This document shows, one piece after another, positions 11,523 to 32,000 of a stretch of DNA of 32,000 bases (the first letter of the stretch is position 1; every line of letters begins with the position of its first letter). The position numbers were made by a program, and so were the translations under genes. Location: contig NZ_CM001976.1 of the NCBI RefSeq assembly GCF_000406145.1, positions 2,674,379-2,706,378 on the forward strand, in the 5' to 3' direction. The notes under the pieces were generated by a model. That model made no database searches. It was not told the origin of the DNA and was given only the letters and a program-made list of their open reading frames with translations. This stretch comes from Dickeya dadantii NCPPB 898 (GTDB lineage: Bacteria; Pseudomonadota; Gammaproteobacteria; Enterobacterales; Enterobacteriaceae).

Positions 11523-11832
11523 AGCTTGCAATAGGCATAAATTGTCTTTACGGACCGCCTGACGGCTGACGCCCGCAGCACATTAATAAAGTTTCGGATC
11601 AGGATGCTACAGGATTTCTCTTGTTAGCCCAACCTTCACCGCACGGCACCATCACAGGGGCTTATCGCTTTTCGCCTGGCTCCTGTCGCTGCCGTACGGA
11701 CTACCGTCTGGTGACGCCATCAATGTCGACTGACCATCAATGTCAACGGACAAGGTTAGCAGTGATTTTGTGTCGTTCATCATTCAGTTACACTATGATA
11801 ATACCTGTCCTGTTAACCTGCCCGCAGGAAAT

Positions 11833-13071: not shown

Positions 13072-13087
13072 TAGTCGTAGGATAACA

Positions 13088-15718: not shown

Positions 15719-15729
15719 GCGTCATTTCT

Positions 15730-15759
15730 ACGACTCACCGGCCGATACCGGTGAGTCGT
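15730..15759 (+). terminator. Perfect 12-bp hairpin after letB
   Basis: ACGACTCACCGG (15730-15741) pairs with CCGGTGAGTCGT (15748-15759) across a 6-nt loop. No T-run, so terminator function is uncertain. Confidence 0.35.
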
Positions 15760-15827
15760 CATCCCTTCAGGCGGTCGAGATATGGTAAGATTCGCGTCCT
15801 GATTGTAGCTGTAACGGAACCGTTTCT

Positions 15828-18027: not shown

Positions 18028-20025
18028 TCAGAATTTCACCCACTCATCTTCGGCGGGATGATGTTTCGCCGACTCTGTCGCCTTGCGGTGAGTATCTTTC
18101 TTCTGCGTCGGTTTCCGGCCGGTTTGGCCCGGCTTATTCAACAGTAATGTCTGATGGCTTGCCGGTGAACTAACATGGTGAGGGTGCGAATCGTCGCCCA
18201 AATGAAACACCGATACCGCCTGCGCCAGTATCCGCGACTGCTCTTCAAGCGAATTGGCCGCCGATGACGACTCTTCCACCAGCGCCGCGTTCTGCTGGGT
18301 CGTGGTGTCCAGCTCCGACACCGCCTGAGCGATCTGGGATATTCCCCGGCTTTGCTCATCCGAAGCCGAGGCGATTTCCCCCATAATGTCAAACACATGG
18401 GCTACCGATTTGACAATATCCTGCATGGTTTTTCCCGCCTCTCCCACCAGCGCTGAACCGGTATCGACCCGCGATACCGATTCATGGATTAACCCCTCGA
18501 TTTCCCGTGCGGCCTGAGCGCTACGCTGGGCCAGATTGCGCACCTCACTGGCGACCACCGCGAATCCGCGCCCTTGCTCGCCGGCTCTCGCGGCCTCAAC
18601 CGCCGCATTCAGCGCCAGAATATTAGTCTGAAAGGCGATACTGTTGATCACCGTCGTAATATCAGAAATGCGTTTGGAGCTGCTGGAAATGTCGTCCATG
18701 GTCTTCACCACGTTATTGACGATTTCACCGCCCTTGACCGCGTTCTGCGACGCTTCCGACGCCAGCTGCGACGCATGGTGGGCGTTTTCGGAGTTCTGTT
18801 TCACCGTCGAGGTCAACTGCTCCATGCTGGCGGCCGTTTCCACCACCGCCGCCGATTGCTGTTCGGTACGGGACGAAAGATCGGTATTACCCGCCGCGAT
18901 TTCCGCCGAGGCGGATTCGACATGCCCCACCCCTTCGCGGATATCCCGGATCATGGTGCGCAGCTTGTCATTCATGTTGCCCATTGCGGTGAGCAACTGC
19001 CCCAGCTCGTCGCGACGCGTCGTACTGACCACAGATGAAAGGTCGCCGCTGGCGATCCGTTCCGCCACCGACAGGCTCAGTTTCAGCGGGACAATCAATT
19101 GCACCGAGATACGCCACGCCATGATGATACCCAGCAGGATCACGGACAGACCGGTCGCCACCATGTTGAATTCCGATGACTGGGTAGTTTGATTGGAATT
19201 AGCCAGTTGTTGATTGAATAGACTGCCGACATCCGTATTCAGTTTTTCCGCCGCCTCACTCATTGCCTGGCTGGCGCGGGTTTCATCCTTAAAAGCGGCC
19301 AGATAGGCCGGCGCAGAACGGCGGTAGCCTGCGAAATAATCCCAGGCGGTATTCAGCCATGCCTGCTGTTCCGCGGATAACCGCCCGGCCTTTTCCTTAA
19401 TGGCCGCTTCGGCGGCATCAATGTTTTTAAGGGTCATTCCCAGCGTATTATCCGAGGGCCCCAGCAGCAGATCATGCGCTACGTCGCGAATATCAGACAT
19501 GTACTCGCCCAATTGGTACAACAGCACCTGAATATCTGACGATACGCCCGCGACCTGCTGCCACTTATTATGGAATGCTTCCAGCACGCTGCCGCTTTCA
19601 TCCTGACCAATAGTCAAACCAGCGGCATCCCGCTTTTTACTGGCGGCGATGAATGCGTCCCGCATGGCCCGATACGTTTTCAGGTCCTGCTCAATGCGGT
19701 TCACATCGTCGATCGTATCCTTATCCCAGCTCAGCGTCTTGGCCTGCCTGAGAATGTCATCCATCTTATTAATCAGCTCGCCATTTTTATCGATAAAGCT
19801 GTAGTCATGCGTGAACTGAAATTGCGTGCGCAGGATTCGAGCCTGCGCCAATGTGGCGTTGAGTTGATTGCTCGCCTGTGCCTTATCGTTATTATCCGCC
19901 ACACTGCGAAATCCAATAACCCCGGCCATCAATACCACCAACGACAATAACAAAACCGAACCAAAGCCTAATGACAGTTTGGTTCCCAGTTTAAGATTTT
20001 CGTATTTTCCACCCAGAATATTCAT
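18028..20025 (-). CDS. Methyl-accepting chemotaxis protein with large helical periplasmic domain
   Basis: The ATG at 20025 (MNILGGKYEN...) is preferred over 20049. Two TM segments flank a ligand-binding region of about 250 aa, followed by a HAMP domain. The cytoplasmic signalling domain is conserved (EQSAAVVETAASMEQLTSTVKQN, FQTNILALNAAVEAARAGEQGRGFAVVA.EVR.LA). The C-terminus ends EWVKF after a long linker. Confidence 0.9.
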   Translation of the reverse strand: MNILGGKYENLKLGTKLSLGFGSVLLLSLVVLMAGVIGFRSVADNNDKAQASNQLNATLAQARILRTQFQFTHDYSFIDKNGELINKMDDILRQAKTLSWDKDTIDDVNRIEQDLKTYRAMRDAFIAASKKRDAAGLTIGQDESGSVLEAFHNKWQQVAGVSSDIQVLLYQLGEYMSDIRDVAHDLLLGPSDNTLGMTLKNIDAAEAAIKEKAGRLSAEQQAWLNTAWDYFAGYRRSAPAYLAAFKDETRASQAMSEAAEKLNTDVGSLFNQQLANSNQTTQSSEFNMVATGLSVILLGIIMAWRISVQLIVPLKLSLSVAERIASGDLSSVVSTTRRDELGQLLTAMGNMNDKLRTMIRDIREGVGHVESASAEIAAGNTDLSSRTEQQSAAVVETAASMEQLTSTVKQNSENAHHASQLASEASQNAVKGGEIVNNVVKTMDDISSSSKRISDITTVINSIAFQTNILALNAAVEAARAGEQGRGFAVVASEVRNLAQRSAQAAREIEGLIHESVSRVDTGSALVGEAGKTMQDIVKSVAHVFDIMGEIASASDEQSRGISQIAQAVSELDTTTQQNAALVEESSSAANSLEEQSRILAQAVSVFHLGDDSHPHHVSSPASHQTLLLNKPGQTGRKPTQKKDTHRKATESAKHHPAEDEWVKF

Positions 20026-20580
20026 AGAATCACCATTTATGGCTCTCATAATGTGAACGTCATTCCATGTATATCAATGACATATCATGATAAATATTAC
20101 ATATCGCTATTTAATAATTGCAAAGGTAATCAACATCCTTTTTTACTGTCATCCTGCCGCCAAAAACCTATTGATGCGTTAAAAAATCTATTGATGCGTA
20201 TAACACTCAATTCAGCAAAAAGTAGAAATAATGAATAGCTGGATGCTTGACACCGTCTCGCACGATTAAAATAACAAATAAATCATGTGATTATGAATAA
20301 ATTGAAACACCATTAAGAATGGTGAGAGAAAAACGATTTACGCTGATTATCAGGATTTTAGTTAACCGTTTTAATCCCTCATAATCTATATATCATCCTT
20401 CCAATAATAGAAAGATATATAATGCAAGGGTATAAGAACCCCCGCTGATCTAGCATGACTGGATATTTCGATGAAAATAAATAGGTCGTTATCAATGGCG
20501 GGAAGACAGAATAAACATCGGGGATAATACGCCGTTGCGAGCAACCTTAATCGCCACGGCTACGCTTTACCTGCGGATGG

Positions 20581-20615
20581 GAACACCCGGCGCAGCCTGC
20601 ACGCACCGGGTGTTC
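20581..20615 (-). terminator. Hairpin immediately downstream of the CI-like repressor gene
   Basis: GAACACCCGG (20581-20590) pairs perfectly with CCGGGTGTTC (20606-20615) across a 15-nt loop, 6 nt after the stop codon at 20621-20623. No clear T-run. Confidence 0.4.
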
Positions 20616-20620
20616 GGATA

Positions 20621-21490
20621 TCAGAAGCTGGGGGTTAGCGTCAGCACCACCACACCGCGCGGCGTGACCTCATCCACCCCGCACTGGAATTGTGAGCCGC
20701 CGCCTTCGACCTGCATTTTACGCCCCGGCAACAGCGCCACATCGTAGATGTCGCTCTTGCCGTCGATATCCAGCAGCCAACGACCATTGCTGATACTGGT
20801 AATTCCGGTATCCACCAGCCAGGAAGACGAACTCCCTTCCACCAGCAGAGGCGCATGCAATCCCGCAGGAATAAACTGCGGATCCGCCTTCCACTCACCC
20901 GCATCCTGCAGTTTTCCGGTTTTCAACAGATTACGCGGGATCAGGCAAATGCCGCTGTCGTCGTGACGGCTGACGGGCGCGTCATTCTGCTGCGGCGAAC
21001 CTCTACCGGTTGCCAGCCACGCCAGCGACACACCGGTATCCAGCGCACAGGTGACCACCACATCCCCCGGAAAGAAATCGCGGCGAATCCAGGTGCTGAT
21101 CGTACCGGGCGCGATGCCCAGCAGATCGCCCAGCTCTTTTTGCGTGCTGAAGCCATAGGCATCAAGCATACGACGCAGTACAGCCTTGCCGCCCGATGAC
21201 AGAATCTGCTCATAAAGCGCTTTGCCTTTCAGCGGCGATTTATACGTAAACACATTCGCATTTGCGAACTCCCCGGTGACCAGCCATCCGGCATCCGCTC
21301 CGGTATCAAGCGCGCACTTCAAAATAATATTACCCGGCACATTCCCTCGCTGAACCCAGTTACTGATTGTATTGGTAGGTATCTCAGTCACCTCGCTCAG
21401 TTCCTTCTGAGTCTTTACTCCGTAGCTTGACATGATGCGCTCAAGCACGAAGGCCGCAGACACGGCATTACTATTTGTATTCAAAAACAC
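20621..21490 (-). CDS. cI: Phage CI-type repressor with two tandem CI-repressor HTH domains and a C-terminal beta-rich (S24-like or oligomerisation) domain
   Basis: 289 aa. Residues 15-73 and 104-162 both carry the 186-CI-type HTH pattern (VL.R....YG..TQKEL......TIS.W..R...PG.....CALDTG....WL.TG). The gene is divergent from the early operon. The start is GTG 21490, or possibly TTG 21484 behind GAGG. Confidence 0.8.
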   Translation of the reverse strand: MFLNTNSNAVSAAFVLERIMSSYGVKTQKELSEVTEIPTNTISNWVQRGNVPGNIILKCALDTGADAGWLVTGEFANANVFTYKSPLKGKALYEQILSSGGKAVLRRMLDAYGFSTQKELGDLLGIAPGTISTWIRRDFFPGDVVVTCALDTGVSLAWLATGRGSPQQNDAPVSRHDDSGICLIPRNLLKTGKLQDAGEWKADPQFIPAGLHAPLLVEGSSSSWLVDTGITSISNGRWLLDIDGKSDIYDVALLPGRKMQVEGGGSQFQCGVDEVTPRGVVVLTLTPSF

Positions 21491-21500
21491 CTCACGAGTA

Positions 21501-21530
21501 TTTACATATACACGTTACGTGTTTTATAGT
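21501..21530 (+). promoter_or_regulatory. Candidate early (pR-like) promoter with an operator palindrome in the spacer
   Basis: TTTACA (21501-21506), an 18-nt spacer, then TATAGT (21525-21530). The perfect 13-bp palindrome ACACGTTACGTGT (21510-21522) lies in the spacer. A leftward TATAAA (complement of 21523-21528) and GTTACA (complement of 21545-21550) could be the repressor promoter. Confidence 0.35.
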
Positions 21531-21587
21531 GTCTACACAGCACATGTAACACCATAGAACACCCTGGCCTGGGGGAGATATTGCTTT

Positions 21588-22058
21588 ATGTCGGACGAGA
21601 TTTCAATTCTAACGCACATTTCTGAGGAAAATCCTACCGCAGCGAGTTCATCCGCAGTGGCAGAAATCAGCTTTTTGGCTGTCAACCAACGGTTTCATGC
21701 TATACCCGACCGGGCGTTAACTTCTTTCACCGGCTTGCGCAGCGCGGTATATAACGCCGCGTCAGTCCCCATGACGCGGCGTGCGTCCTGCCGCACAAGC
21801 ACGTCATGGATCCAGTCTGCCCACATCGTGCCTCAGCGCAATTTTGCAAATGCAAAAACGGCATTCATCACTGCTACGACGACAGCCGTTTTTTCCAGCC
21901 TCATCACCGCCCGAGCGCCATCGGCGCAGTACAGCCGTTCAACCGTTGTGAATGGCGGCAATGATTTTAACACTAAGTTCGGAAATTCGAATTCAGCGGA
22001 TATTTCGCGTCGGTTGCCGGAGGCTGACGGCCGCGATGGTAAACGGGCGTCATCATGA
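21588..22058 (+). CDS. Hypothetical first early-operon ORF (doubtful coding assignment)
   Basis: GGGGGAGA RBS lies 9 nt upstream of the ATG, and the stop overlaps the next ATG (ATGA at 22055-22058). However, the 156-aa product is Ser/Thr/Ala-rich and Leu-poor, and the antisense frame looks more protein-like (see findings). Confidence 0.35.
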   Translation: MSDEISILTHISEENPTAASSSAVAEISFLAVNQRFHAIPDRALTSFTGLRSAVYNAASVPMTRRASCRTSTSWIQSAHIVPQRNFANAKTAFITATTTAVFSSLITARAPSAQYSRSTVVNGGNDFNTKFGNSNSADISRRLPEADGRDGKRASS

Positions 22059-22603
22059 AGCCCCATTATGCCTTTACCGCCGAACATCTGCAGACCTTGC
22101 CGCCCAATTTGCGGGCGCTGATCGGAAAACACTTCGCGGATTCGCGCTGGGCGCAGACGTGCGTTTTTTATCGGCGGCTCTCCGAACGCTATCGCCGCAC
22201 GCTGTGTTTTCATGCCGCGCTGCACCACCGCTGGTGTGTCTATCAACTGGAAGAGATGGATGAAATGGCGCGCGAAAGAATCGTCAGCGCGCTGAATGAA
22301 CTGCGTAGCGCATTCGACTTGCCGGAAAAACAGGAGCCAGGCCAGCTCCTGTACTCGGTTCGGGTCCTCACCCTCAGCGAACGACGCACGCTGTTTTTCC
22401 ATGCCGGGCTCACGACCCAGGAATTCGATCAACCTTTGCGGCGCATTGATGAGTCGGATTGCCAGTGGGCGAAAGCGCTTAACCGCGCCCTCGGCGAGTT
22501 GCATAGCCTGTTTGCCGAGGCGCCGGACATTCTGACCAGCATCAGACCTGAACACTATTTCAACGCCGAACACTATTTCAGCGCCGAACACCATTCGCGT
22601 TGA
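22055..22603 (+). CDS. Hypothetical phage early protein with internal duplication
   Basis: 182 aa with high third-position GC and CTG-rich codon usage typical of this genome. Same orientation as gpA. Internal repeat LSERYRRTLCFHAAL / LSERRTLFFHAGL. Confidence 0.7.
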   Translation: MKPHYAFTAEHLQTLPPNLRALIGKHFADSRWAQTCVFYRRLSERYRRTLCFHAALHHRWCVYQLEEMDEMARERIVSALNELRSAFDLPEKQEPGQLLYSVRVLTLSERRTLFFHAGLTTQEFDQPLRRIDESDCQWAKALNRALGELHSLFAEAPDILTSIRPEHYFNAEHYFSAEHHSR

Positions 22604-22722
22604 CGACAGTTTCGCTGACGGCAGATCGCGTCAGTAAAAACGACATCGTTAACTCAACCGCCAGCACACAGGCCACCGTTCAGGATGGTCCGCCTTGTTG
22701 CTGCTTAACATCAGGAAATTGT

Positions 22723-22938
22723 ATGAAAAATACACAAACGAATCACAAGACGTCGTCCCTTACCAGGCGGCATATCCCAAATGACGTCTGGCGTACCGAC
22801 CTTGCTCATCGCTATAGCGAGCATCTGGAGCAGCTGGCGCAACACGCCCGGCAGGAACAGCTGTCCGCTCAGGAACTGGTGGCGTTGCTACAACAGGAAG
22901 CCGAAAACATTCGGCACCAGATTTGGGAGGCGCACTAA
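22723..22938 (+). CDS. Hypothetical small phage protein (predicted helical/coiled)
   Basis: The ATG at 22723 follows an AGGA RBS. The 71-aa product ends in TAATG, overlapping the next start. The tracked start at 22600 is an unsupported upstream extension. Confidence 0.55.
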   Translation: MKNTQTNHKTSSLTRRHIPNDVWRTDLAHRYSEHLEQLAQHARQEQLSAQELVALLQQEAENIRHQIWEAH

Positions 22939-23162
22939 TGGCAGACAGTATGGACATTTCCCAGGAGCAGCAAGCCATGCTGCTGGATGCGCAAATCGCC
23001 CATGCCCGCAAAGCCCCGGTCGCTCACACCGCCCATGTCTGCGAGGACTGTGATGCGCCGATTCCCGAAGCCCGCCGTCAGGCGATCCCCGGGGTGACGT
23101 GCTGCGTGGCGTGCCAGGAAATTCGCGAACAGAAACAACGTCACTACCGTTCACCGTCCTGA
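22938..23162 (+). CDS. TraR/DksA-family C4 zinc-finger protein (P2 orf82-like)
   Basis: CEDCDAPIPEARRQAIPGVTCCVACQ is a C-x2-C...C-x2-C motif typical of phage TraR-like proteins located just before gpA. GGGAGG RBS. Confidence 0.85.
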   Translation: MADSMDISQEQQAMLLDAQIAHARKAPVAHTAHVCEDCDAPIPEARRQAIPGVTCCVACQEIREQKQRHYRSPS

Positions 23163-23258
23163 GCATGTTTTCACTGACTGACAAGCCAGGGTCGATCTGC
23201 GGCTATTCCCGCCGGTAATCCGGCAAACATTCATCGGGTAGGTAAACGCTGGCTGGTT

Positions 23259-25385
23259 ATGACGTCTGACGAAACCGAAAAAAACGCCGACAACCGGGGC
23301 GACCGCTGGGCATACCCGTGGAATGCGCCCCGCCCCGCCATACTGCCCGAATCCAGCGCATTGTCTGCGGACACCTTGCAGCAGGGACAGGCGGTACTGT
23401 ATCTGCTGGCGTTGCTGCCGCGTTTTCTGGCCGGCCATTTCCGCCGTCGCTTCGATTATCTGAAGCAGCATCAGGGGCTGGCCGCCGCGTTCAGCTACCT
23501 GTTATCGGTGGTTCAGCGGCGGCTCTGGCCCCGAATCGACGCCGTCAACGCCCGCTACCGGATGAACACGGCCTTATCTTCACGCTTCATCAGCGAAGCG
23601 GAGCAGTATCACCAGTTGCCGGATATGCCGGACAAGGTGCTGCGCGCGTTCGCCGGCCGCATCGCCGCCCACATGAACGATGCCTACCATGCCCACTGCG
23701 AACGCTACCTGCAGGAATGTCCCGGCGATGCTCAGGCGACGTTATTCAACGATGAAACACAAGCGCGCATCTATGGTCGGTTAGCGACACTGGCGCAAGC
23801 CCTGAACGTGACGCCCGCCCACTGGCATCGCCATCAGAACGGAACGCTCACGCTGGAACAGGCGTGCGCCGGCATTATGCGGCTGGTCAACCCCCGCTGG
23901 TGGGAACGCCAGTTGAAGATTCAGCGAGCCCGCTGGCGCGAGGCATTGTGGATTGCCGGCGGCGAGGTGAGCCGGGCCGCGTCTCCCTTTCTCAGCCGCC
24001 AGGCATTGCAGGATATCCGCTACCGCCGTCTGGCGACGCTGGATTTTCTGAAAAGTCGCGAGCTGGAGAATACCCGCAACGGCGAGCGGGTCGATTTGAT
24101 CGATAAAGTCATGGGCAGTATCGCCAACCCGGAAATTCGCCGAATGGAACTGATGACCATGCTGGCGGGTATTGAGCGTTACGCGACCGCACACCACCAC
24201 ATCGGTATGCTGGTGACATTCACCGCTCCCGGCCACTACCATCCCACCCGTACTCGCGGTCACGAGCGAGTATTGGTCAACACCGGATGGATGCCGGACT
24301 GCCCTTCGCCCAAAATGACCCAGCATTATCTGGTCAAGCTATGGGGAAAAATCCGTACCGCGCTCAAAGACCGTAAACTGCACATCTACGGATTACGGGT
24401 CGTGGAACCCCATCACGACGGCACGCCGCACTGGCACATAATGCTGTATTGCGAACGCGCACAGCGTCAGGCGATCGTCGAGATCCTGCGTCGCTATGCC
24501 CAGCCTGGTGAAAGCGAGCGCACGGTGGCGCATAACCGCCGGTTTGACTGCAAGCACATCAACAAGGGCGGCGCGGCGGCGTACGTCGCCAAATACATCG
24601 CCAAAAATATCGATGGCTATGCGCTCGACGGTGAAGCAGACCACGAAACCGGAAAGCCGCTAAAAGAGATGGCCGCCGCCGCCTCGGCCTGGGCCTCGCT
24701 CTGGCGCATTCCGCAATTCCATTTCATCGGGTTGCCCACGATTGGCGCGTACCGCGAATGCCGTCGAATTCGCAGCCGGTCATTGCAGGACGAACTGGGC
24801 GAACAGGCCGAAGTGGTGAGATTTGCGGCGGATCGCGGCGACTTCGCGGCCTATATCGAAGCGCAGGGCGGCGCGAATGTCGCCAGGCAACGCCAGTCGG
24901 TTCGTGTCGCCAGAGCCGCCAGCGAACGGCTGAACGCCTACGATGAAACTATCGTACGCACCATCGGTATTTTTTCCGCCCAGCGCGGTCGCGAGCGTGT
25001 CTTCACCACCCGGCTGGACGAATGGCAAATCGTGGCCAAACACCACGCCGGCGGCGATGTTGCCAACGGCCGTCGCCCGGCTCTGCCTTGGAGTTCTGTC
25101 AATAACTGTGGGGGCGCGTTTTCGTCCGACGCGCTCCCTTACCCATTTCGCGATATTCCTCGCGTTCCTTCAGCGCGGCTAACCTATTTTCAGCGCGATC
25201 GACTGGCGTCGTTGCGCCCCCGCCTGAGCCAGCAAGGTATTGATATCTCACGCTGGGAACGGGAGGCGTTGGTGCGCGGCGCCAGCGTGAAAATTGACGG
25301 CCAACTGATTGATGAATTTAGGAATAAAGCTATATCCGCCGTTGATGAAAAGCGCATCATGGGCAAACAGGTCCTGCACTTATGA
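23259..25385 (+). CDS. gpA: P2 gpA-family replication initiation endonuclease (rolling-circle HUH nuclease)
   Basis: 708 aa with the HUH motif EPHHDGTPHWHIMLY and the catalytic tyrosine pair AAAYVAKYIAKNIDGYALD, matching P2 gpA as recalled. Confidence 0.92.
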   Translation: MTSDETEKNADNRGDRWAYPWNAPRPAILPESSALSADTLQQGQAVLYLLALLPRFLAGHFRRRFDYLKQHQGLAAAFSYLLSVVQRRLWPRIDAVNARYRMNTALSSRFISEAEQYHQLPDMPDKVLRAFAGRIAAHMNDAYHAHCERYLQECPGDAQATLFNDETQARIYGRLATLAQALNVTPAHWHRHQNGTLTLEQACAGIMRLVNPRWWERQLKIQRARWREALWIAGGEVSRAASPFLSRQALQDIRYRRLATLDFLKSRELENTRNGERVDLIDKVMGSIANPEIRRMELMTMLAGIERYATAHHHIGMLVTFTAPGHYHPTRTRGHERVLVNTGWMPDCPSPKMTQHYLVKLWGKIRTALKDRKLHIYGLRVVEPHHDGTPHWHIMLYCERAQRQAIVEILRRYAQPGESERTVAHNRRFDCKHINKGGAAAYVAKYIAKNIDGYALDGEADHETGKPLKEMAAAASAWASLWRIPQFHFIGLPTIGAYRECRRIRSRSLQDELGEQAEVVRFAADRGDFAAYIEAQGGANVARQRQSVRVARAASERLNAYDETIVRTIGIFSAQRGRERVFTTRLDEWQIVAKHHAGGDVANGRRPALPWSSVNNCGGAFSSDALPYPFRDIPRVPSARLTYFQRDRLASLRPRLSQQGIDISRWEREALVRGASVKIDGQLIDEFRNKAISAVDEKRIMGKQVLHL

Positions 25386-25386
25386 G

Positions 25387-25429
25387 TTGACGAATATTAC
25401 TGAATAAAGTACTGTATATAAATACAGTC
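25387..25429 (+). promoter_or_regulatory. SOS-regulated promoter: TTGACG -35, TACTGT -10 overlapped by a LexA box
   Basis: TACTGTATATAAATACAGTC (25410-25429) has a CTG-N10-CAG core and matches TACTG(TA)5CAGTA at 18 of 20 positions by my count. TTGACG (25387-25392) lies 17 nt upstream of TACTGT. Confidence 0.8.
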
Positions 25430-25448
25430 TCACAATGGAAGAGGTACC

Positions 25449-25670
25449 GTGGAACAGACTGAAAACAGAGAGCTGACCTTGTCAAGGATTCGATTAATTG
25501 CCGATATATCATTGATATCACAATGCAATCCTGAAGAAATGAAAATCGCCATGTCGTTGATCGCCGACTTATCTCACGGCGAACTCCCGGACAGTGATTA
25601 TCAACAGTTTCTGAAAAACAGCAGTGATGGACAGCAGCTTAAAGCATGGTTCGAACAACAAATGTTGTAA
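25449..25670 (+). CDS. Small LexA-controlled ORF, candidate Tum-like antirepressor
   Basis: GAGG (25441-25444) precedes GTG at 25449. The ORF is 73 aa, AT-rich and acidic, with an internal repeat LIADIS / LIADLS. It sits immediately downstream of the SOS box and after gpA, as tum does in phage 186. Confidence 0.5.
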   Translation: MEQTENRELTLSRIRLIADISLISQCNPEEMKIAMSLIADLSHGELPDSDYQQFLKNSSDGQQLKAWFEQQML

Positions 25671-26243
25671 GGGATTTCGATGGATAATAATGACCGACGT
25701 GAAATTCCCTGGCCGATAGCCAGAGGCACGTGCAAATTAATGGATTTTCTCTGTGGCTAACACGCCCGACTAATACGCAGCAAAATTTTTTTCGTATCCA
25801 GACCGTTCAATAAAAAGGTCTGACTGGCCAAAGCCGGTATATACATTTTGGTATAAATTTTAATTCTGACTCAGTGCAAACCTGTTCGTTGGTCATGTTT
25901 TTTCTTTAACACAGCAGTACGGAATTAGGGTATTCCCATGTAAAAACGTCTGGTAGTGATATTACCCCCGGCCTTCCCGGTACCTTTAACGTACAATATC
26001 CCCTGCCAGCAAGGATCGGCAGGGGACATAATAAGCGGGCACCCTAAAAGAACCATAATAAGCCGCGCGAACAATAAACAAGGGACATGCTAACCAGACA
26101 CCCCTGACACCATTTTCCGCCTGTTGTTGTGTCATCCGTCCAACGCCTTTCCCGCATTGCGACCGCTATCGTTCCTCTGGAGGATAAAGGACCCGAGATA
26201 ACCCGTTTTACTCGATCTTTTTATCTGAACTTAAAGGTATCAC

Positions 26244-26447
26244 ATGAAAGTTTACGCCCATCAGGACGACACCCTGGACGCGCTCTGTTACCGCTACTAC
26301 GGCCGCAAGCAAGGCGTGGTGGAAACGGTTATGCTGTCCAACCACGGGCTTGCGGACCTTGGCCCGATTCTGCCGCACGGCACCGCCGTCACCCTGCCCG
26401 ATATGAATACTTCCGGCTCACAGGAAAGCGTCAATATCTGGGAATAA
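26244..26447 (+). CDS. gpX: P2 tail protein X (LysM-like)
   Basis: 67 aa, the same length as P2 gpX. MKVYAHQDDTLDALCYRYYGR...LP resembles gpX as recalled. Confidence 0.88.
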   Translation: MKVYAHQDDTLDALCYRYYGRKQGVVETVMLSNHGLADLGPILPHGTAVTLPDMNTSGSQESVNIWE

Positions 26448-26522
26448 TGCCGGATCATCAGGCTCCATGCTTGCCTTCGGCTGATAACACATGGAGATCG
26501 CCGCCACACCAGGAACCTTATC

Positions 26523-26984
26523 ATGCAAAAACCACAAAGCCTCAAACTTGCACTGACCAGCGCGCTACCCGCGTTGGGCAATGCGTTACAGTTTCGGATC
26601 CAGGAGGGGGAAATCGCCGCGTTGCAAGAGCCGTCCCTGTCGTTTGAATACCGCTATCAGTTGCTGCTGACGTTGACTAATTTCTCTGACAATCCCGACA
26701 CCCTTTTCGTCACCCTGCTGCTCTGGGTGCGTCAGAATCAGCCGGACCTGCTAACGCGTGAAAGTATCCGCAACAAAGGCATCAGTTTTACGATCGACAA
26801 CAACGCGGATAACACCAGCACGCTGTCCGTACGGCTCAACCTGACTGAGCGCAACCGGGTCAATGAACAGAATCAAAGCCTGCAGGTGCATTATGAACCG
26901 GAGCCAACACCGCCCGAACCGGTTAGCCGGCCCACGGCACTGTATATCGCCGGTGAACCGGTCAGTCAGTGGAAAGGGAACTGA
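26523..26984 (+). CDS. gpR: P2 tail completion protein R
   Basis: 153 aa versus 155 aa for P2 gpR. Shared blocks by eye: SLSFE.RY.L, LL.W.R.NQPD, FT...DNN.D.S, LTER, EPPPPEPV.RP..LYI.GE.VS.W. Confidence 0.85.
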   Translation: MQKPQSLKLALTSALPALGNALQFRIQEGEIAALQEPSLSFEYRYQLLLTLTNFSDNPDTLFVTLLLWVRQNQPDLLTRESIRNKGISFTIDNNADNTSTLSVRLNLTERNRVNEQNQSLQVHYEPEPTPPEPVSRPTALYIAGEPVSQWKGN

Positions 26985-27012
26985 CCCCTCTAGATATCAT
27001 TTCCTTCGTGAT

Positions 27013-27037
27013 GGCCGTTGTGAATACGGCCTTTTTT
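27013..27037 (+). terminator. Rho-independent terminator after gpR
   Basis: GGCCGT (27013-27018) pairs with ACGGCC (27026-27031) across a 7-nt loop, followed by TTTTTT (27032-27037). Confidence 0.8.
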
Positions 27038-27312
27038 CCTGAGAAACTATAAGTAATGATTATTTCATGATCTAAAACTTTCATCTTATTTATTTCCATC
27101 CCGTAATTTTCATAATAAACTTTATCTCCGATCTACCTACACGCCTTCTTTATTTTCTTCATCGCAAATTATTTCAGAAATCGTTTTCTACTGTTATCGC
27201 CGGGGATTAATCAGTAATACCCTATTACCTTCTATGCCTCATCAGCGAAAACCTGCTGACGCTATTACCTCATCCACTCTCTTTTGGATTGAATAACTGA
27301 AGGGAAACACCA

Positions 27313-28074
27313 TTGGATAACAGCCGAAGTTTGCCACGTAATATACGAAAGGAATTACTCCATTTTAAACATTTTGGTAACAATGAAGGATTTCTTTATT
27401 ACCCAAAAATCATGGAAGATATTCGCCCTTCTCTGCCTGAAAACGCCATCTCCCATTGCGGCGGCAATGGTGAAAAGTTCAGAAAGTTGCTTACTCTGTT
27501 CGGCGGTCATTTGGGCGACCCGTATAGCCCGACCGCCGTTCCCGGCGCGTCACCGCAGCTCACCAGTATTTTCTCTTCTTACGGATTGCTGACGGCCAGA
27601 GCGGATTCGCCAACGCCGGTGTTTACCCAGCCCGACTTTCTGCTGCTGTATTGCCGGTGTGAAACGTCCGTCTTCAAAATACTGGTTGGCATCGCCAGCC
27701 TTCGTCATGTTATTACGCATATGGACCGGCAAACCCGCATCGAATTATGCCTGCCGCAGTATACGCTGCGCCCCGGCGCCATCAGCCAGGAGCAAACGCC
27801 GTTCAGTCTCCTCAGCGCCGACCGCGACCCCTTTTTGACCTGTACGCCTGACCTGGCGTATCCCCTGACCTCGCCCGCCAGATATGCGTTGCTGAAGTTC
27901 GACCCGCTGCTGAAAAACAGCATGCAATGGCTCAATCTGAAACGGGGCGATCTGCTCATTATCGACAGCCGTCGCAGTACCCACACCTGTGTGCCATTTA
28001 CCCCGTTTTTCCGCCAGGATTCCCCTTACCTGGCGCACATGTTCATCAACAAACCGAACCCGACACAACACTGA
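27313..28074 (+). CDS. Orphan protein in an AT-rich island; C-terminal half resembles TauD/TfdA / clavaminate-synthase-like Fe(II)/2OG oxygenases
   Basis: TTG start behind GGGA; an alternative ATG is at 27412. Motifs QPDFLLLYCRCE (aa 106-117), DPFL, and GDLLIIDSRRSTHTCVPF (aa 212-229) resemble the CAS-like pattern RPDYL.L.C ... GD.L..DN.R..H.R.PF. The GC content is visibly lower than in the flanking tail genes. Confidence 0.6.
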   Translation: MDNSRSLPRNIRKELLHFKHFGNNEGFLYYPKIMEDIRPSLPENAISHCGGNGEKFRKLLTLFGGHLGDPYSPTAVPGASPQLTSIFSSYGLLTARADSPTPVFTQPDFLLLYCRCETSVFKILVGIASLRHVITHMDRQTRIELCLPQYTLRPGAISQEQTPFSLLSADRDPFLTCTPDLAYPLTSPARYALLKFDPLLKNSMQWLNLKRGDLLIIDSRRSTHTCVPFTPFFRQDSPYLAHMFINKPNPTQH

Positions 28075-28221
28075 CGCCTTACACCGGTGCGCCACGCCAC
28101 GGCGTGTTACCGTGATGCCAGGATCGCAATGCAAAGGCCGTGGTGCAAAGATCGGTGGGGCCATCCGCCACACAACCACGGCGAATTGTCTCACTGCGCG
28201 GGAAGACGCATGCTTCCCACC

Positions 28222-28863
28222 ATGAATACATACGAATATCTCTCCGAAATCCAGCGCGCGCTGCGTAACCTGATTCGTATCGGCGTCATCACCGAGGTCG
28301 ATACCCAACAGGCACGCTGCCGCGTGCAGACCGGTGGCATGGTCACCGGATGGCTCCACTGGCTGTCCCGTCGTGCGGGGAGTTCCCGCGAATGGTGGGC
28401 GCCGTCGGTGGGTGAACAGGTGTTATTGCTTGCAATAGGAGGCGAACTCAATACGGCATTTGTCTTACCGGGTATTTACAGCGAACATCATCCGGCCCCA
28501 TCGGCTTCTGCGGATGCCTGCCACATCCGCTTCCCTGATGGCGCGGTGATGGAATACGAGCCGGCCAACGGCGCGCTGACGGTCACCGGTATCAAGAGCG
28601 CGACGGTCGTCGCATCGGAATCGGTGACCGTCACCACGAAAAACGTCACCGTCAACGCCAGCCAACGCATCACGCTGGACACCCCGGAAGTCGTCTGTAC
28701 GCACAAATTAATCACCCAGACTATCGACGTGCAGCAAGGCGGCAGCATTACCGGCAGCGTCACCCACTCGGGGGGAAGCTTCTCCTCCAATGGCGTGGTG
28801 GTGCATACCCATCAGCATAGCGGCGTACAAAATGGCGGCGGCACAACAGGAGGACCTCTATGA
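28222..28863 (+). CDS. gpV: P2 baseplate spike/assembly protein V
   Basis: The sequence from the ATG at 28222 (MNTYEYLSEIQRALRNLIRIGVI...CRVQTGGM..WL.WL..RAG.SR.WWAPSVGEQVL) is colinear with P2 gpV, including C-terminal HTH.H.G..GGTTG.PL. The tracked start at 28087 is an extension. Confidence 0.92.
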   Translation: MNTYEYLSEIQRALRNLIRIGVITEVDTQQARCRVQTGGMVTGWLHWLSRRAGSSREWWAPSVGEQVLLLAIGGELNTAFVLPGIYSEHHPAPSASADACHIRFPDGAVMEYEPANGALTVTGIKSATVVASESVTVTTKNVTVNASQRITLDTPEVVCTHKLITQTIDVQQGGSITGSVTHSGGSFSSNGVVVHTHQHSGVQNGGGTTGGPL

Positions 28864-29210
28864 CCAGCACGTCATACACCGGCATGAATCGCAACACCGG
28901 CGGCAGCCTCAGCGATCTGGAACATTTGCGTCAAAGCGTGCGCGATATCCTGACCACCCCGCAAGGCAGCCGGGTCATGCGGCGCGATTACGGTTCGCTG
29001 CTTTCCACCCTGATCGACCAACCGCAAACGCCCGCGCTGAAGTTACAGGTGCAGGCGGCCTGCTATGTCGCCTTGCTGAAGTGGGAGCCGCGGCTGACGC
29101 TGACGTCCATCGCAATGGAAAGCCACTACGACGGCCAGTTGATTGTGGATATTTCCGGCACCCTGGCCGGCAACGGCACATCCCTTTCGTTAACCATTCC
29201 CGTGAGCTGA
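28860..29210 (+). CDS. gpW: P2 baseplate protein W (gp25-like)
   Basis: GMNR......DLEH..QS..DIL.TP.GSRVMRRDYGSLL...IDQPQTPAL and C-terminal LSLTIPVS match P2 gpW. ATGA overlap with gpV. Confidence 0.92.
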   Translation: MTSTSYTGMNRNTGGSLSDLEHLRQSVRDILTTPQGSRVMRRDYGSLLSTLIDQPQTPALKLQVQAACYVALLKWEPRLTLTSIAMESHYDGQLIVDISGTLAGNGTSLSLTIPVS

Positions 29211-29214
29211 GATC

Positions 29215-30123
29215 ATGCCTCTTATCGATTTAAGTCAGTTACCCGCCCCCAGCGTGGTCGAAACGCTGGATTATGAAACCCTGTACGCCACACGCAAAGA
29301 AACCCTGCTGTCGCTCTACAGCGCCGACGAGCGCGAAGCCATTGCGCGCGCCCTGACGCTGGAATCGGAGCCGATGGTGAAACTGCTGCAGGAAAACGCT
29401 TACCGCGAGCTGCTGCTGCGCCAGCGCATCAATGAAGCCGCTCAGGCCGGGATGTTGGCGTTTGCTCAGGGCAACGATCTGGACCAGTTGGGCGCCAACG
29501 TCAACGTCTCCCGACTGGTGATCACCCCGGCTGACAATACCACCGTTCCCCCGATCGCCGCCGTGATGGAGTCCGATACCGATTTCCGCCTGCGTATTCA
29601 GCAGGCTTACGAAGGCCTGAGCGTGGCCGGCTCCATCGGCGCCTACCAGTTCCACGGGCGCAGCGCCAGCGGTCAGGTAGCGGATATCTCGGTCATCAGC
29701 CCCGGTCCCGCTCAGGTGCTGGTGTCGGTCCTGTCGCGGGAAAACGACGGTACGGCCAGCGATACGCTGATCGCCACCGTCAATGCGGCGCTCAATGCCG
29801 AAGACGTTAGGCCGGTGGCCGACCGGGTTACCGTCCAATCGGCAGTGATCGTTCCTTACGATATCAATGCCACGCTTTACCTGTATCCCGGCCCGGAGGC
29901 CGAACCTATCCGCGCCACTGCCGAGAAGAAACTGCAGAGTTACGTCAGCACCCAGCATCGACTGGGCCGTGATATCCGCCGTTCCGCCATCTACGCCGCA
30001 CTGCATGTGGAAGGGGTTCAGCGGGTAGAACTGGCTCGTCCGGCGGCGGATATCGTGCTGGACGATACTCAGGCGTCGCACTGCACCGGCTATACCCTGA
30101 CGCTGGGGGGAACGGATGAATAA
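29215..30123 (+). CDS. gpJ: P2 baseplate protein J
   Basis: 302 aa. MPLIDLSQLPAP.VVE, ESEP.VKLL.ENAYRE, VMESDTD.RLRIQQA.EGLSVAGS.GAYQ.HGRSA and DVRPVADRVTVQSA match P2 gpJ. Confidence 0.93.
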   Translation: MPLIDLSQLPAPSVVETLDYETLYATRKETLLSLYSADEREAIARALTLESEPMVKLLQENAYRELLLRQRINEAAQAGMLAFAQGNDLDQLGANVNVSRLVITPADNTTVPPIAAVMESDTDFRLRIQQAYEGLSVAGSIGAYQFHGRSASGQVADISVISPGPAQVLVSVLSRENDGTASDTLIATVNAALNAEDVRPVADRVTVQSAVIVPYDINATLYLYPGPEAEPIRATAEKKLQSYVSTQHRLGRDIRRSAIYAALHVEGVQRVELARPAADIVLDDTQASHCTGYTLTLGGTDE

Positions 30124-30727
30124 AAGCCCCCTGCTGCCGCCCGGTTCATCGCCGCTGGAACACGCCGTTGCCGTCACCGGCGCCAGCCTGGAAACCGTGC
30201 CGATTCCCCTGCGCCAACTCTGGAATCCGGATACCTGCCCGGTCGAGCTGTTGCCTTATCTGGCCTGGACACTATCGGTTGACCGCTGGGATGAAAGCTG
30301 GACGGAAACCGTCAAACGCAAGGTCATCAGGGACGCGTTCTTTATCCACCGCCACAAGGGCACCATCGGCGCGCTGCGCCGGGTCGTTGAACCGCTGGGA
30401 TACCTGATTCGCATCAAGGAATGGTGGCAAACCGGCGACACTCCCGGCACCTTCCGGCTGGATATCGGTATTCAGGAATCCGGGATCACCGAAGAGTCCT
30501 TTCAGGAGCTGGAGCGCCTGATTGCCGACGCCAAACCGGTTAGCCGCCAGATGCTGGGGTTAAACATCAATCTGGACAGTTCCGGCCCACTGTTAATGGG
30601 CGCCGGCGCCTATAGCGGCGACGAACTCACCATCTACCCCTATTTCCCGGAAACCATCAGCGTTTCTGGCGAAGAGATCAATGGGGCGGCGATTCACCTG
30701 ATTGATGACATCTACGTCGGTGGTTGA
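30116..30727 (+). CDS. gpI: P2 baseplate/tail protein I
   Basis: LLP.GSSPLE, LWNPDTCP..LLP.LAW..SVDRWDE.W, HKGTIGA.RRVVEPLGYLI, PGTFRLDIG..ESGITE and RLIADAKP.SR match P2 gpI. 8-nt overlap with gpJ. Confidence 0.92.
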   Translation: MNKSPLLPPGSSPLEHAVAVTGASLETVPIPLRQLWNPDTCPVELLPYLAWTLSVDRWDESWTETVKRKVIRDAFFIHRHKGTIGALRRVVEPLGYLIRIKEWWQTGDTPGTFRLDIGIQESGITEESFQELERLIADAKPVSRQMLGLNINLDSSGPLLMGAGAYSGDELTIYPYFPETISVSGEEINGAAIHLIDDIYVGG

Positions 30728-30743
30728 TTTTCCCTCTCGTTCT

Positions 30744-30768
30744 AAGCCAGCCTGCGCTGGCTTTTTTT
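30744..30768 (+). terminator. Strong rho-independent terminator directly after gpI
   Basis: AAGCCAGC (30744-30751) pairs with GCTGGCTT (30756-30763) across a 4-nt loop. The T-run extends to 30768 (7 T). Confidence 0.85.
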
Positions 30769-30790
30769 ATGGCTGAATCGCCGCCGGATG

Positions 30791-30810
30791 TTGTCTCCCC
30801 CCGCTAACAA
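30791..30810 (+). promoter_or_regulatory. Candidate P2 Ogr/Delta-type late-promoter activator site (TGT-N12-ACA)
   Basis: TTGT-CTCCCCCCGCTA-ACAA has perfect dyad arms with a 12-nt spacer, centred at about 30800.5. A CATACT -10-like hexamer at 30844-30849 predicts a start near 30856, putting the dyad at about -55 as in P2 late promoters. Confidence 0.4.
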
Positions 30811-31086
30811 CGCCCGCCGGATGCGCCAACAGCGCCGACTTCGCATACTACCTCTACCCAGGCTGTGCCCCGGGTAACGCACTTCACGACCGACGCGGGC
30901 GCGCACCTACCCCGGTGCAGCGCCCATAACCTGATAACGCCTTTGGGCCTGCGCCCGCACCCAGATATCCGGCGACACAGCCTACCCACAGCCGGGCATA
31001 CCGGCTGGTCATCGCCCGTCGGCCAGCCCGGCTTCTCCGATGCCGCTCTGCGGCATCCTCTCCTGTCAACAAAATGAGTAATCTGC

Positions 31087-32000
31087 ATGAGTACAAAATA
31101 CTTTGCTTTACTGACGAACACCGGCGCGGCGAAGCTGGCTAACGCCACCGCGCTGGGTAGCCATCTGGCTATCACGCAAATGGCGGTGGGTGATGGCGGC
31201 GGCAGCCTGCCGACGCCGACACCCGCTCAAACCAAACTGGTCAATGAGAAACGCCGCGCCGCGCTCAACGCGCTAAGCATCGACCCGCAAAACACCAACC
31301 AGATCATGGCCGAGCAGGTAATTCCTGAGAATGAAGGCGGCTGGTGGATCCGCGAAATCGGTCTGTACGACAGCGACGGCGATCTGATCGCTGTCGCAAA
31401 CTGCGCCGAAACCTATAAACCGCAGTTGCAGGAAGGGTCCGGCCGGGTGCAAACCGTGCGCATGATCCTGATTGTCAGCACGACCGAAGCCATTACCCTG
31501 AAGATTGACCCGGCGGTGGTGCTGGCCACTCGTCAATACGTCGATGATAGCGCCATTCAGGTCAAGGCCTACGCCGACACTCAACTCAACGCACATCTTG
31601 CAGCCCCCAACCCTCACCCGCAGTACGCACCACTCAATAGTCCGGCGCTGACCGGCGCACCCACCGCGCCAACAGCGGAGAAAAGTGTGAACTCCACACA
31701 GCTGGCGACTACCGCGTTTGTCAAAAACGTCGCTCTGCTCAAAGAGCAGAACGGCGCCGACATCGCTAACAAATCCGCTTTTCTCGCAAACCTGGGTTTA
31801 AGCGACGTGCTGAAAAGCGCCGACCTGGCCGGCATCCCGCTGCCCTGGCCGCAGGCGACGCCACCGGCCGGCTGGCTGAAATGCAACGGTCAGGCGTTCG
31901 ACAAAAACGCCTTCCCCAAACTGGCGCTGGCGTACCCCGGCGGCGTCCTGCCGGATCTGCGCGGCGAATTTATTCGTGGCTGGGATGATGGGCGCGGGGC
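31087..32000 (+). CDS. gpH: P2 gpH-like tail fibre protein (3'-partial) with a phage tail-collar domain
   Basis: This ORF is not in the ORF track because it runs off the window. My hand translation from the ATG at 31087 is open to 32000. MSTKYFALLTNTGAAKLANA...ITQMAVGDGGG...GGWWIREIGLYD..G.LIAVAN.AE.YKP...EGSG matches the gpH N-terminus. LNSPALTGAPTAPTA is also conserved. The end carries the collar motif PAGWLKCNGQAFDKNAFPKLA...LPDLRGEFIRG. Confidence 0.9.
   Translation, partial: MSTKYFALLTNTGAAKLANATALGSHLAITQMAVGDGGGSLPTPTPAQTKLVNEKRRAALNALSIDPQNTNQIMAEQVIPENEGGWWIREIGLYDSDGDLIAVANCAETYKPQLQEGSGRVQTVRMILIVSTTEAITLKIDPAVVLATRQYVDDSAIQVKAYADTQLNAHLAAPNPHPQYAPLNSPALTGAPTAPTAEKSVNSTQLATTAFVKNVALLKEQNGADIANKSAFLANLGLSDVLKSADLAGIPLPWPQATPPAGWLKCNGQAFDKNAFPKLALAYPGGVLPDLRGEFIRGWDDGRG

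Follow-up and report, generated by a model that had tools for sequence, protein, structure and literature searches.

What kind of element keeps the repressor, the replication genes and the tail genes of a P2-type phage while lacking the genes for its head, its lysis and its integration? The question is raised by the right-hand part of a 32,000-nucleotide stretch of the Dickeya dadantii NCPPB 898 chromosome (assembly GCF_000406145.1, contig NZ_CM001976.1, positions 2,674,379 to 2,706,378), which we refer to as the window and whose positions 20,621–32,000 run from a CI-like repressor gene into the tail fibre gene H. An initial annotation, made from the letters alone, described a P2-type tail locus, read it as an R-type tailocin or a helper-dependent element and noted that P2-like tailocins had been described in Dickeya. 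We are confident that this part of the window covers the left-hand two-thirds of dickeyocin P2D1 as carried by another strain of D. dadantii; the P2D1 locus is already published, and its appearance here is a rediscovery rather than news. P2D1 itself is, with little doubt, a domesticated prophage of the P2/186 family that has become fixed in the chromosome and produces contractile tails only, as an R-type tailocin does.

The gpA protein of the window is identical to WP_013318205.1 of D. dadantii 3937 at 697 of 708 residues (98.4%) and falls within a 90% cluster of 708-residue proteins annotated as 'replication endonuclease' from D. dadantii, D. solani and D. fangzhongdai, with about 92% identity to those of the latter two species. 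A 73-residue open reading frame (ORF) with an SOS box agrees with the strain 3937 protein ADM98762.1 in 72 of 73 residues. The gpJ of the window reaches 99.7% identity with a D. dadantii protein and shares a 90% cluster with Dickeya gpJ proteins, and the tube protein of the orthologous locus carries the annotation 'MULTISPECIES [Dickeya]'. In strain 3937, tailocin particles and their proteomics have been assigned to the P2D1 cluster, in which WP_013318212 is named gpJ and WP_013318223 and WP_013318224 are named sheath and tube, respectively (Borowicz et al. 2023, PMC10719855). If gpA is taken as 205 in this accession series, a count through the 73-residue ORF, X, R, an orphan gene, V and W places J at 212, which is the published gpJ, and the order in the window agrees. 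The flanks agree as well. The dickeyocin region is bounded by a chemoreceptor (methyl-accepting chemotaxis) gene and guaD (2025 paper, PMC11974492); such a chemoreceptor gene lies directly to the left of CI in the window (18028–20049), and a guaD-like amidohydrolase gene lies directly to the right of ogr in orthologous loci, where we read the right end, the window itself stopping in H. Near-identical proteins and a position between the chemoreceptor gene and guaD, which are the testable marks of the P2D1 family, were thus all found. The identities of gpA and the 73-residue ORF, the order of the accession series and the matching flanks together indicate that the Dickeya tailocin mentioned initially and the locus in the window are one and the same.

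The P2D1 locus of strain 3937 (NC_014500.1, ~2,730,482–2,757,061) belongs to the same species and is orthologous to that of the window, with proteins 98–99% identical and the same order, flanks and loss of head genes. The two loci belong to different strains, and even the nearest genome that we compared is about 1.3% divergent in DNA from the window. This nearest genome, GCA_030168535.1, has 98.6–98.7% DNA identity to the window, and its locus continues into sheath and tube genes. Particle production is known from strain 3937, which makes contractile bactericidal particles of ~166 nm (PMC10719855) and whose P2D1 is induced by mitomycin, fluoroquinolones and peroxide, that is, by inducers of the SOS type (PMC12297226); the window strain is known here from its genes alone. 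The published accounts of P2D1 that we consulted do not describe the LexA-boxed, TumA-like gene, the gpA, gpB and ori under selection, the missing lysis genes and gpS or the invertase-mediated fibre switching that we report below.

Lost phage modules and selection on what remains

We searched the 32-kb window and the orthologous downstream loci by tblastn with all P2, 186 and PSP3 proteins. None of Q, P, O, N, M, L, Y or K was found, nor were lysA, lysB or lysC, a holin, an endolysin, S, int, cox/apl, cII, old or tin, in agreement with the initial annotation, which had reported lysis, gpS, head and integrase genes to be missing from the tail cluster. The absence of gpS extends to all species examined. 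No cos-like sequence was detected, the interval between the SOS operon and X yielding only random 11–14-mers, and the window contains no transfer RNA gene and no att candidate. Neither the AT-rich left junction (20050–20620, 571 bp between the chemoreceptor gene and CI, GC 41–46%) nor the rest of the sequence gave a remnant of an integrase, Apl/Cox or CII by tblastn with P2, 186 and PSP3 proteins. We also sought a hidden holin or lysin and found no intergenic ORF with a segment resembling a membrane span. The spacings leave the same picture: X and R are separated by 75 bp, and gpA and X by 858 bp, 222 bp of which are the SOS-box ORF. The 75, ~860 and 570 bp given initially for these two gaps and the left junction were accurate to within a few bases.

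The locus is collinear with an integrated P2/186 prophage from which several parts have been lost: int and att, the whole stretch that separates the SOS operon from the tail genes (old/tin, cos and Q-P-O-N-M-L), the lysis cassette that stands between X and R in the phage, gpS and, downstream of the window, most of the tape-measure gene. The parts that would mark a functional P2/186-like (Peduoviridae) prophage, namely Q P O N M L with cos and an integrase, excisionase and att, are missing. Capsid, portal and terminase genes were absent by tblastn from the window and flanking loci, as is expected of an R-type tailocin; a lysis cassette of its own, which is typical of R-pyocins and not strictly defining, was not found. 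The literature infers release through lysis and names no gene for it (PMC10719855, PMC12297226).

The same head-less order of CI, early genes, gpB, DUF2732, TraR, gpA, the 73-residue ORF, X, R, V, W, J and I adjoins rsmF in D. undicola and D. oryzae, and it does so too in D. aquatica, a basal species, and in DNA of the Musicola paradisiaca type. An exact-peptide-word genome scan with gpA returned two Dickeya species only, and the distribution is taken from protein searches and context look-ups. All gpA homologs are full length, with identities of 92% in D. solani and D. fangzhongdai, 89% in D. dianthicola, 81–85% in D. undicola, D. oryzae, D. zeae and D. chrysanthemi, 67–68% in D. aquatica and D. 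lacustris and 60% in Musicola, followed by a gap to ~50% in phages of other genera. The fixed position by rsmF across two genera, together with divergence that tracks that of the host, points to vertical inheritance rather than mobility. The left junction itself is variable: D. undicola (locus L011, 5560–8284) has no chemoreceptor gene between rsmF and CI.

We estimated the ratio of nonsynonymous to synonymous substitution rates (dN/dS) by pairwise Nei–Gojobori comparison with D. undicola and D. oryzae. The ratio is 0.09–0.12 for gpA (705 codons, dS 0.67–1.14), 0.10–0.13 for the gpB-like gene, 0.02–0.05 for CI, 0.07–0.08 for the TraR-like gene, 0.15 for the 73-residue ORF and 0.02–0.15 for the tail genes. 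The host gene rsmF, for comparison, gives 0.06. Overall, retained homologs range from 0.02 to 0.22 at dS of 0.17–2.1, with DUF2732 against D. oryzae (0.48) as the exception; the first early ORF, of 156 residues, gives about 0.5. The dS values of the locus are similar to that of rsmF. The head-less state is therefore old and vertically inherited, and every retained P2 homolog, including the replication genes, is under purifying selection. Selection instead of random decay had been proposed from the intactness of the genes, and the low ratios of the retained homologs bear this out, excluding random decay.

Predicted induction circuit and replication module

Immunity and replication modules had both been called intact, and both are present; the refinement is that immunity is of the 186/PSP3 CI type and not of the P2 C type. 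The repressor gene (20621–21490, minus strand) encodes two Phage_CI_repr domains, the N-terminal helix-turn-helix being duplicated, and a Phage_CI_C domain (E = 2e-46), and its product matches PSP3 CI from end to end with 55% identity and 186 CI with 34%. The promoter scan of the adjoining switch region (21491–21587) found a pR-like early promoter, TTTACA-18-TATAGT, at 21501–21530, with the palindrome ACACGTTACGTGT in its spacer; between CI and the early ORFs, three Dickeya species agree at 97 of 100 positions. The first early ORF (21588–22058, plus strand, as are all later genes) stands at the position of apl/cII. Its 156-residue product is rich in serine, threonine and alanine and has no match in Pfam, PHROG or NCBIfam; the frame is open in every species examined at only 34–48% identity between species, and its stop codon overlaps the start of the gpB-like gene. 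Within this fast-evolving ORF, TTTGCAAAT (21843–21851) and AAATTCGAATTC (21983–21994), each of which occurs once in the window, form conserved islands 330–470 bp to the right of pR. The two recur side by side just upstream of ogr (locus L026, 13808–13827; locus L007, 13778–13794). In phage 186, CI has distal (FR) and pB operators, and the islands are possibly distal and late-activator operators for CI.

Directly after gpA lies an SOS promoter (25387–25428, plus strand; -35 TTGACG, -10 TACTGT), whose LexA box TACTGTATATAAATACAGT (25410–25428) overlaps the -10 element and whose core, CTGT-N8-ACAG at 25412–25427, is the sole such site in the 32-kb window. The layout is that of p95, LexA and tum in 186. 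The promoter precedes the 73-residue ORF (25449–25670), a candidate antirepressor gene whose product is homologous to PSP3 TumA (40% over 43 residues, pairwise E = 3e-12); a wider alignment takes in the N-terminus of 186 Tum. PSP3 TumA is annotated as 'similar to 5' end of 186 tum; UV induction of prophage', and a TumA-like gene holds the same position after gpA in PSP3, in 186 and in a Yersinia P2-like phage with a homolog. The ~230 nucleotides that follow the TumA-like gene (25671–25900) are conserved across species, among them a 26-codon ORF (25680–25760, MDNNDRREIPWPIARGTCKLMDFLCG) that shows synonymous changes in D. undicola; this ORF may add another small product to the SOS operon, in the position that PSP3 fills with the DinI-like tumB. 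Two features of a 186/PSP3 switch are present, namely a CI-family repressor divergent from the early promoter and a LexA-boxed tum-like gene downstream of A. Apl and CII gave no matches, and the non-homologous 156-residue ORF occupies their position.

Late promoters were sought with a pattern for Ogr/B sites (GTTGT-N12-CCA/ACA) that we derived from the annotated late promoters of P2 and 186. Ogr-type sites precede X (GTTGTT-N11-CCA, 26123–26142, plus strand), H (GTTGTC-N11-ACA, 30790–30809, plus strand, in the gap between I and H) and FI; the GTTGTTGTG half of the X site is invariant in three species, and a site lies upstream of H in orthologous locus L007 as well. Such a site is also present before V in Musicola and D. 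aquatica, and the strict pattern finds none there in the window species. V may be transcribed by read-through from the orphan's transcript. Intrinsic terminators follow R (27013–27031) and I (30744–30763). In P2, V-W-J-I-H-G form one operon; here, the terminator and Ogr-type site between I and H suggest that H and the fibre switch may be transcribed separately.

These elements suggest a circuit. DNA damage would lead to LexA cleavage and open the promoter at 25387–25428, as its perfect SOS box in a p95-like arrangement implies, and the TumA-like protein would then inactivate CI, to judge from its homology to PSP3 TumA. The pR-like promoter would in turn express the early operon (the 156-residue ORF, gpB, DUF2732, TraR-like and gpA), and ogr would also be derepressed; the motifs shared by the early region and the ogr promoter suggest direct control of ogr by CI, as at 186 pB. 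By their consensus sites, the promoters before X-R, H and FI would be switched on by Ogr, and the tails would assemble and be freed on death of the producer. In strain 3937, particle production, induction and the lethal loss of CI have been demonstrated (PMC10719855, PMC12297226, PMC13566846), and the dickeyocin CI gene was essential in transposon sequencing (2026 study, PMC13566846), so that derepression alone is lethal. The tailocin regulators 'remain to be elucidated' (2025, PMC12297226); a LexA box acting through a TumA-like protein on a PSP3-type CI and then on Ogr would make a concrete and complete circuit, open to experimental test, behind the induction that has been published for mitomycin C, fluoroquinolones and peroxide.

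The early operon also contains a P2-type rolling-circle replicon. The gpB-like gene (22055–22603) encodes a Phage_RepB protein 48% identical to P2 B over residues 3–165. It is followed by the DUF2732 gene (22600–22938), which Pfam and PHROG place in the family of P2 Orf80 and 186 Orf79 and which has no direct tblastn match to either, and by a TraR/DksA-type zinc finger gene (22923–23162; zf-dskA_traR, E = 8e-12; 55% to P2 Orf82). The full-length 708-residue gpA (23259–25385; Phage_GPA, E = 3e-87, and PHROG) keeps the HUH-type metal motif HHDGTPHWH and the tyrosine pair YVAKY in alignment with the A proteins of P2 and 186. Within its gene, TTGGAGTTCTGTCAATAACTG (25088–25108, plus strand) differs by one mismatch from the nick region of 186 and by two from the annotated one of P2, with zero matches expected by chance; the 26-nucleotide core of this ori is identical in three Dickeya species, and the flanking codons have diverged. 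The gpA motifs, gpB and a nick sequence within gene A are what defines such a replicon.

In P2, gpB is a helicase loader and late gene expression depends on replication driven by A and B, and tailocins are usually described as stripped of replication functions. Here, the rolling-circle module of gpA, gpB and ori is under purifying selection across the sampled Dickeya and Musicola, and this selection suggests that it presumably still acts. If it does, its most likely role would be the nicking and replication of the locus in situ, a process that supports late gene expression in P2-type phages. A more speculative proposal, to which we give rather less than an even chance, is that the replicon is kept on purpose: after SOS induction, gpA would nick ori and, with gpB, replicate a locus that cannot be excised, thereby providing more template and perhaps adding to the killing of the producer, and full late tail expression would depend on it. 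P2D1 would then be a domesticated tailocin with a built-in gene-dosage amplifier, which would help to account for the lethality of CI loss despite the lack of lysis genes.

Tail genes, the right end and the invertible fibre segment

Genes were assigned by Pfam and PHROG searches and by tblastn with every P2 protein. The initial order of CI on the minus strand, early ORFs, TraR-like, gpA, SOS-box ORF, X, R, orphan, V, W, J, I, a gap and H was borne out gene by gene, with the start of H effectively right. All tail genes lie on the plus strand: the baseplate/tail protein gpX (26244–26447; Phage_tail_X, E = 1e-26; 64% to P2 X), the tail terminator gpR (26523–26984; P2_Phage_GpR; 44% to P2 R), the spike gpV (to 28863; Phage_base_V, Phage_spike and Apex; 66% to P2 V), the baseplate wedge gpW (28860–29210; GPW_gp25; 60% to P2 W) and the baseplate proteins gpJ (29215–30123; Baseplate_J; 74% to P2 J) and gpI (30116–30727; Tail_P2_I). 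For gpV, the P2-like start is 28222, and the start annotated in the nearest genome corresponds to 28129, which adds 31 residues. X, V, W, J, I and the N-terminus of H are full length by Pfam and by alignment to P2. By megablast of the region against phage genomes, the only match was one of 50 nucleotides in P2 H; at the DNA level, no phage is closely related to the locus. In 19500–32000, Rfam gave no match to a known RNA family, and PADLOC returned nothing for the ORFs that lack an assignment.

A low-GC orphan gene (27313–28074, plus strand, 253 residues, GC 46–48%) occupies the position of P2 S/orf30. Its product shows a weak, sub-threshold match to clavaminate synthase (E = 3e-12), from which a TauD-like dioxygenase fold is predicted. 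The gene is absent from the D. oryzae, D. aquatica and Musicola loci and is probably a moron rather than a tail component. We considered it as a lysis gene and rejected it, given that its only match is weakly dioxygenase-like and that several species lack it.

We read the right end of the locus in orthologous genomes, the best being 98.6% identical, as the window ends inside H. Beyond the window, the locus of the nearest genome continues through the remainder of H into a 4.9-kb segment, which is followed by the gene for a Hin/Gin-type invertase, a fibre ORF with a collar domain, a tail-fibre assembly protein gene, sheath, tube, E, E', an ORF at the position of T, U, D and Ogr, and twelve further Dickeya loci continue in the same way. 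The orthologous sheath (FI, 389 residues) and tube (FII, 172 residues) are intact, with no frameshift in well-assembled genomes. Host genes follow Ogr directly, namely the guaD-like amidohydrolase, a GGDEF protein and chemoreceptors (12 Dickeya loci). A look downstream for G, FI, FII, E/E', T, U, D and ogr and for lysis genes had been proposed as a check. In the orthologs, FI, FII, E/E', U, D and ogr are present, together with the tail-fibre assembly protein gene and, at the position of T, only a short ORF; lysis genes were not found. Capsid, terminase, lysis or integrase genes past H, or frameshifted sheath and tube genes, had been named as findings that would overturn the reading, and neither turned up in these orthologs.

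The ORF at the position of T encodes 353–369 residues in all Dickeya loci (for example, locus L007, 11015–12079), lies between E' and U and is rich in serine, glycine, asparagine and glutamine. Only its last 64 residues are homologous to the 775-residue tape measure of a syntenic Prodigiosinella locus (39%, E = 2e-10). The claim that all retained P2 homologs are full length thus holds in the window, where the alignments are essentially full length, and fails downstream at T. Published P2D1 papers state that there is no tape-measure gene, the 2023 paper describing a cluster without one and particles of 166 nm (PMC10719855), whereas the short T-derived ORF is present in the orthologous loci. About 355 residues could not span 166 nm, which leaves the setting of particle length unexplained.

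The Prodigiosinella locus, in Prodigiosinella confusarubida/Serratia sp. ATCC 39006 (CP025084.1, 3273044–3293565), is a syntenic relative at the same guaD–GGDEF position. It contains two pairs of H and chaperone genes, phytase-like and Smr genes, FI, FII, E, E', a full-length T (775 residues), U, D and Ogr, and it has no invertase and no V, W, J or I within 2 kb upstream of H. This synteny indicates that the phytase-like and Smr genes had come to lie between the genes for fibre and sheath by the time Dickeya and Prodigiosinella diverged. In the Musicola-type contig (locus L032, 15833–18167), a phytase-like gene comes directly after gpI, and no H with the N-terminal domain is found.

The window contains the constant N-terminal part of the tail fibre gpH (31087–32000, plus strand, running off the window; Phage_tail_fib N-terminal and Collar domains; 57% to the N-terminus of P2 H). 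Inside it, a gix/cix-like crossover site, TTCTCGCAAACCTGGGTTTAAGCGAC (31781–31806, plus strand), lies at the outer edge of a ~230-bp inverted repeat, the left copy of which is at 31774–32000. The repeats bound the 4.9-kb segment, which corresponds to 11655–16537 in the nearest genome (locus L001 of GCA_030168535.1) and is invertible, the Hin/Gin-type invertase gene lying just outside it. Inversion exchanges the C-terminus of H, giving proteins of 401 or 386 residues that diverge at residue 307, and both orientations occur among closely related genomes. Published work notes 'orientation' differences of the segment genes, and we found no mention there of an invertase or of fibre switching. The segment holds phytase-like, PcaK-like major facilitator superfamily (MFS) transporter and SmrA genes and, in some species, an alternative glycine-rich fibre end; it is unusual that three ordinary-looking genes flip along with the fibre.

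The GCA_030168535.1 chromosome (CP110362.1, 4.97 Mb) carries the locus at both of its ends (4947891–4968502 and 1945–22556). The two copies are 99.9% identical apart from small indels and have the segment in opposite orientations. Most simply, the double copy is an untrimmed circular overlap of ~26 kb from a culture that was mixed for the inversion, and the apparent frameshifts in gpA or sheath, one in each copy, are probably assembly errors. If the overlap reading is true, this assembly gives direct evidence of an active fibre switch.

Alternative readings and comparison with known systems

Several points weigh against the reading of the locus as an SOS-controlled tailocin. By direct BLASTP, the 73-residue ORF has no significant match to 186 Tum, and the two are linked only through PSP3 TumA; binding by TumA, LexA, CI and Ogr is predicted from sequence. 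In the window species, the pV activator site has a degenerate left half, with GGTGG for GTTGT (28129–28222). Sheath, tube, the T-like ORF, U, D and Ogr were seen in orthologous genomes only. Two gaps in the current picture add to these points: lysis genes were not found in the window or in the orthologous loci, which leaves the release step unexplained, and the T-position ORF, at ~355 residues, seems too short for the reported 166-nm particle even when fully extended.

Some of these points would suit an inert, decaying prophage remnant in which nothing is produced and the early and replication genes are mere leftovers: several modules are deleted, little is left of the tape-measure gene, one half of the pV site has degenerated, and one published Dickeya strain that carries the cluster gave no particles. 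Leftovers would not be expected to remain intact at dN/dS of no more than 0.22 (one DUF2732 comparison at 0.48) over dS of 0.17–2.1, nor to keep their architecture across Dickeya and Musicola, and the 3937 ortholog yields particles, proteomics and induction and has an essential CI (PMC10719855, PMC13566846). Decay is already largely refuted, and we consider it very improbable. The end of the window inside H, with the right end out of view, leaves room for a prophage that is complete and merely rearranged, with modules for head, lysis and integration at another place in the vicinity; 12 orthologous Dickeya loci, however, end in Ogr followed by guaD, GGDEF and chemoreceptor genes, and the left 20 kb of the window are host DNA (rsmF, pqi/Mla-type genes and the chemoreceptor gene) without any match to a P2, 186 or PSP3 protein, so that the probability of this arrangement is close to nil.

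The intact gpA, gpB and ori, together with a repressor and an antirepressor, could also belong to a helper-dependent, satellite-like element that keeps its replicon and immunity for mobilization or packaging by a co-resident P2-like helper or that supplies the helper with tails, as the initial annotation had allowed. Such an element would need to be packaged and to move, whereas the locus has no cos-like sequence and no integrase, excisionase or att, and its position adjoining rsmF is fixed in two genera, with divergence that follows the host. The helper-dependent alternative is not supported by these observations, and we regard it as highly unlikely. The evidence instead favors the R-type tailocin that the initial annotation had proposed for this head-less tail locus: sheath and tube are intact in the orthologs, and no head, terminase, lysis or integrase gene was found in the window or in the orthologous downstream loci.

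Among known systems, P2 (Peduovirus P2, NC_001895) has homologs (44–79%) of the early genes B, Orf82 and A of the P2D1-type locus and of its X, R, V, W, J, I, H, FI, FII, E, U, D and ogr; they stand in prophage order, and the ori nick sequence is kept. In contrast to P2, the locus has no Q-L, cos, Y/K/lysABC, S, int, cox, C, old, tin or fun(Z), its T is not recognizably P2-like, its immunity is of a different type, and a terminator and a separate late-promoter-like site stand between I and H. It is the control region that resembles 186 and PSP3 (Eganvirus), with a homologous CI (55% to PSP3), a promoter directly after gene A whose LexA box overlaps the -10 element and which drives a TumA homolog, and an activator of the Ogr/B type at the far end. 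Apl, CII, Fil, Dhr, the TumB/DinI part and Int of 186/PSP3 are missing, and gpA and gpB of the window are closer to P2 than to 186 (47% versus 34%).

The R-type pyocins of Pseudomonas aeruginosa and the xenorhabdicin xnp1 are likewise head-less, P2-type contractile tail clusters that are fixed in the chromosome and induced by DNA damage. R-pyocin loci have holin, lysin and spanin genes of their own and are regulated by PrtN/PrtR and not by a phage CI; to our knowledge, they do not retain gpA or gpB. Carotovoricin Er of the sister genus Pectobacterium switches its tail fibre by DNA inversion. Its ancestry is of the Mu type, it has no dedicated repressor (PMC13566846), and its sheath identity is only 34% (PMC10719855); the xenorhabdicin (xnp1) of Xenorhabdus is mentioned in PMC13280938. 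Set against these systems, the P2D1-type locus works like an R-type tailocin under an SOS switch of the 186/PSP3 type and fits neither a functional nor a helper-dependent prophage.

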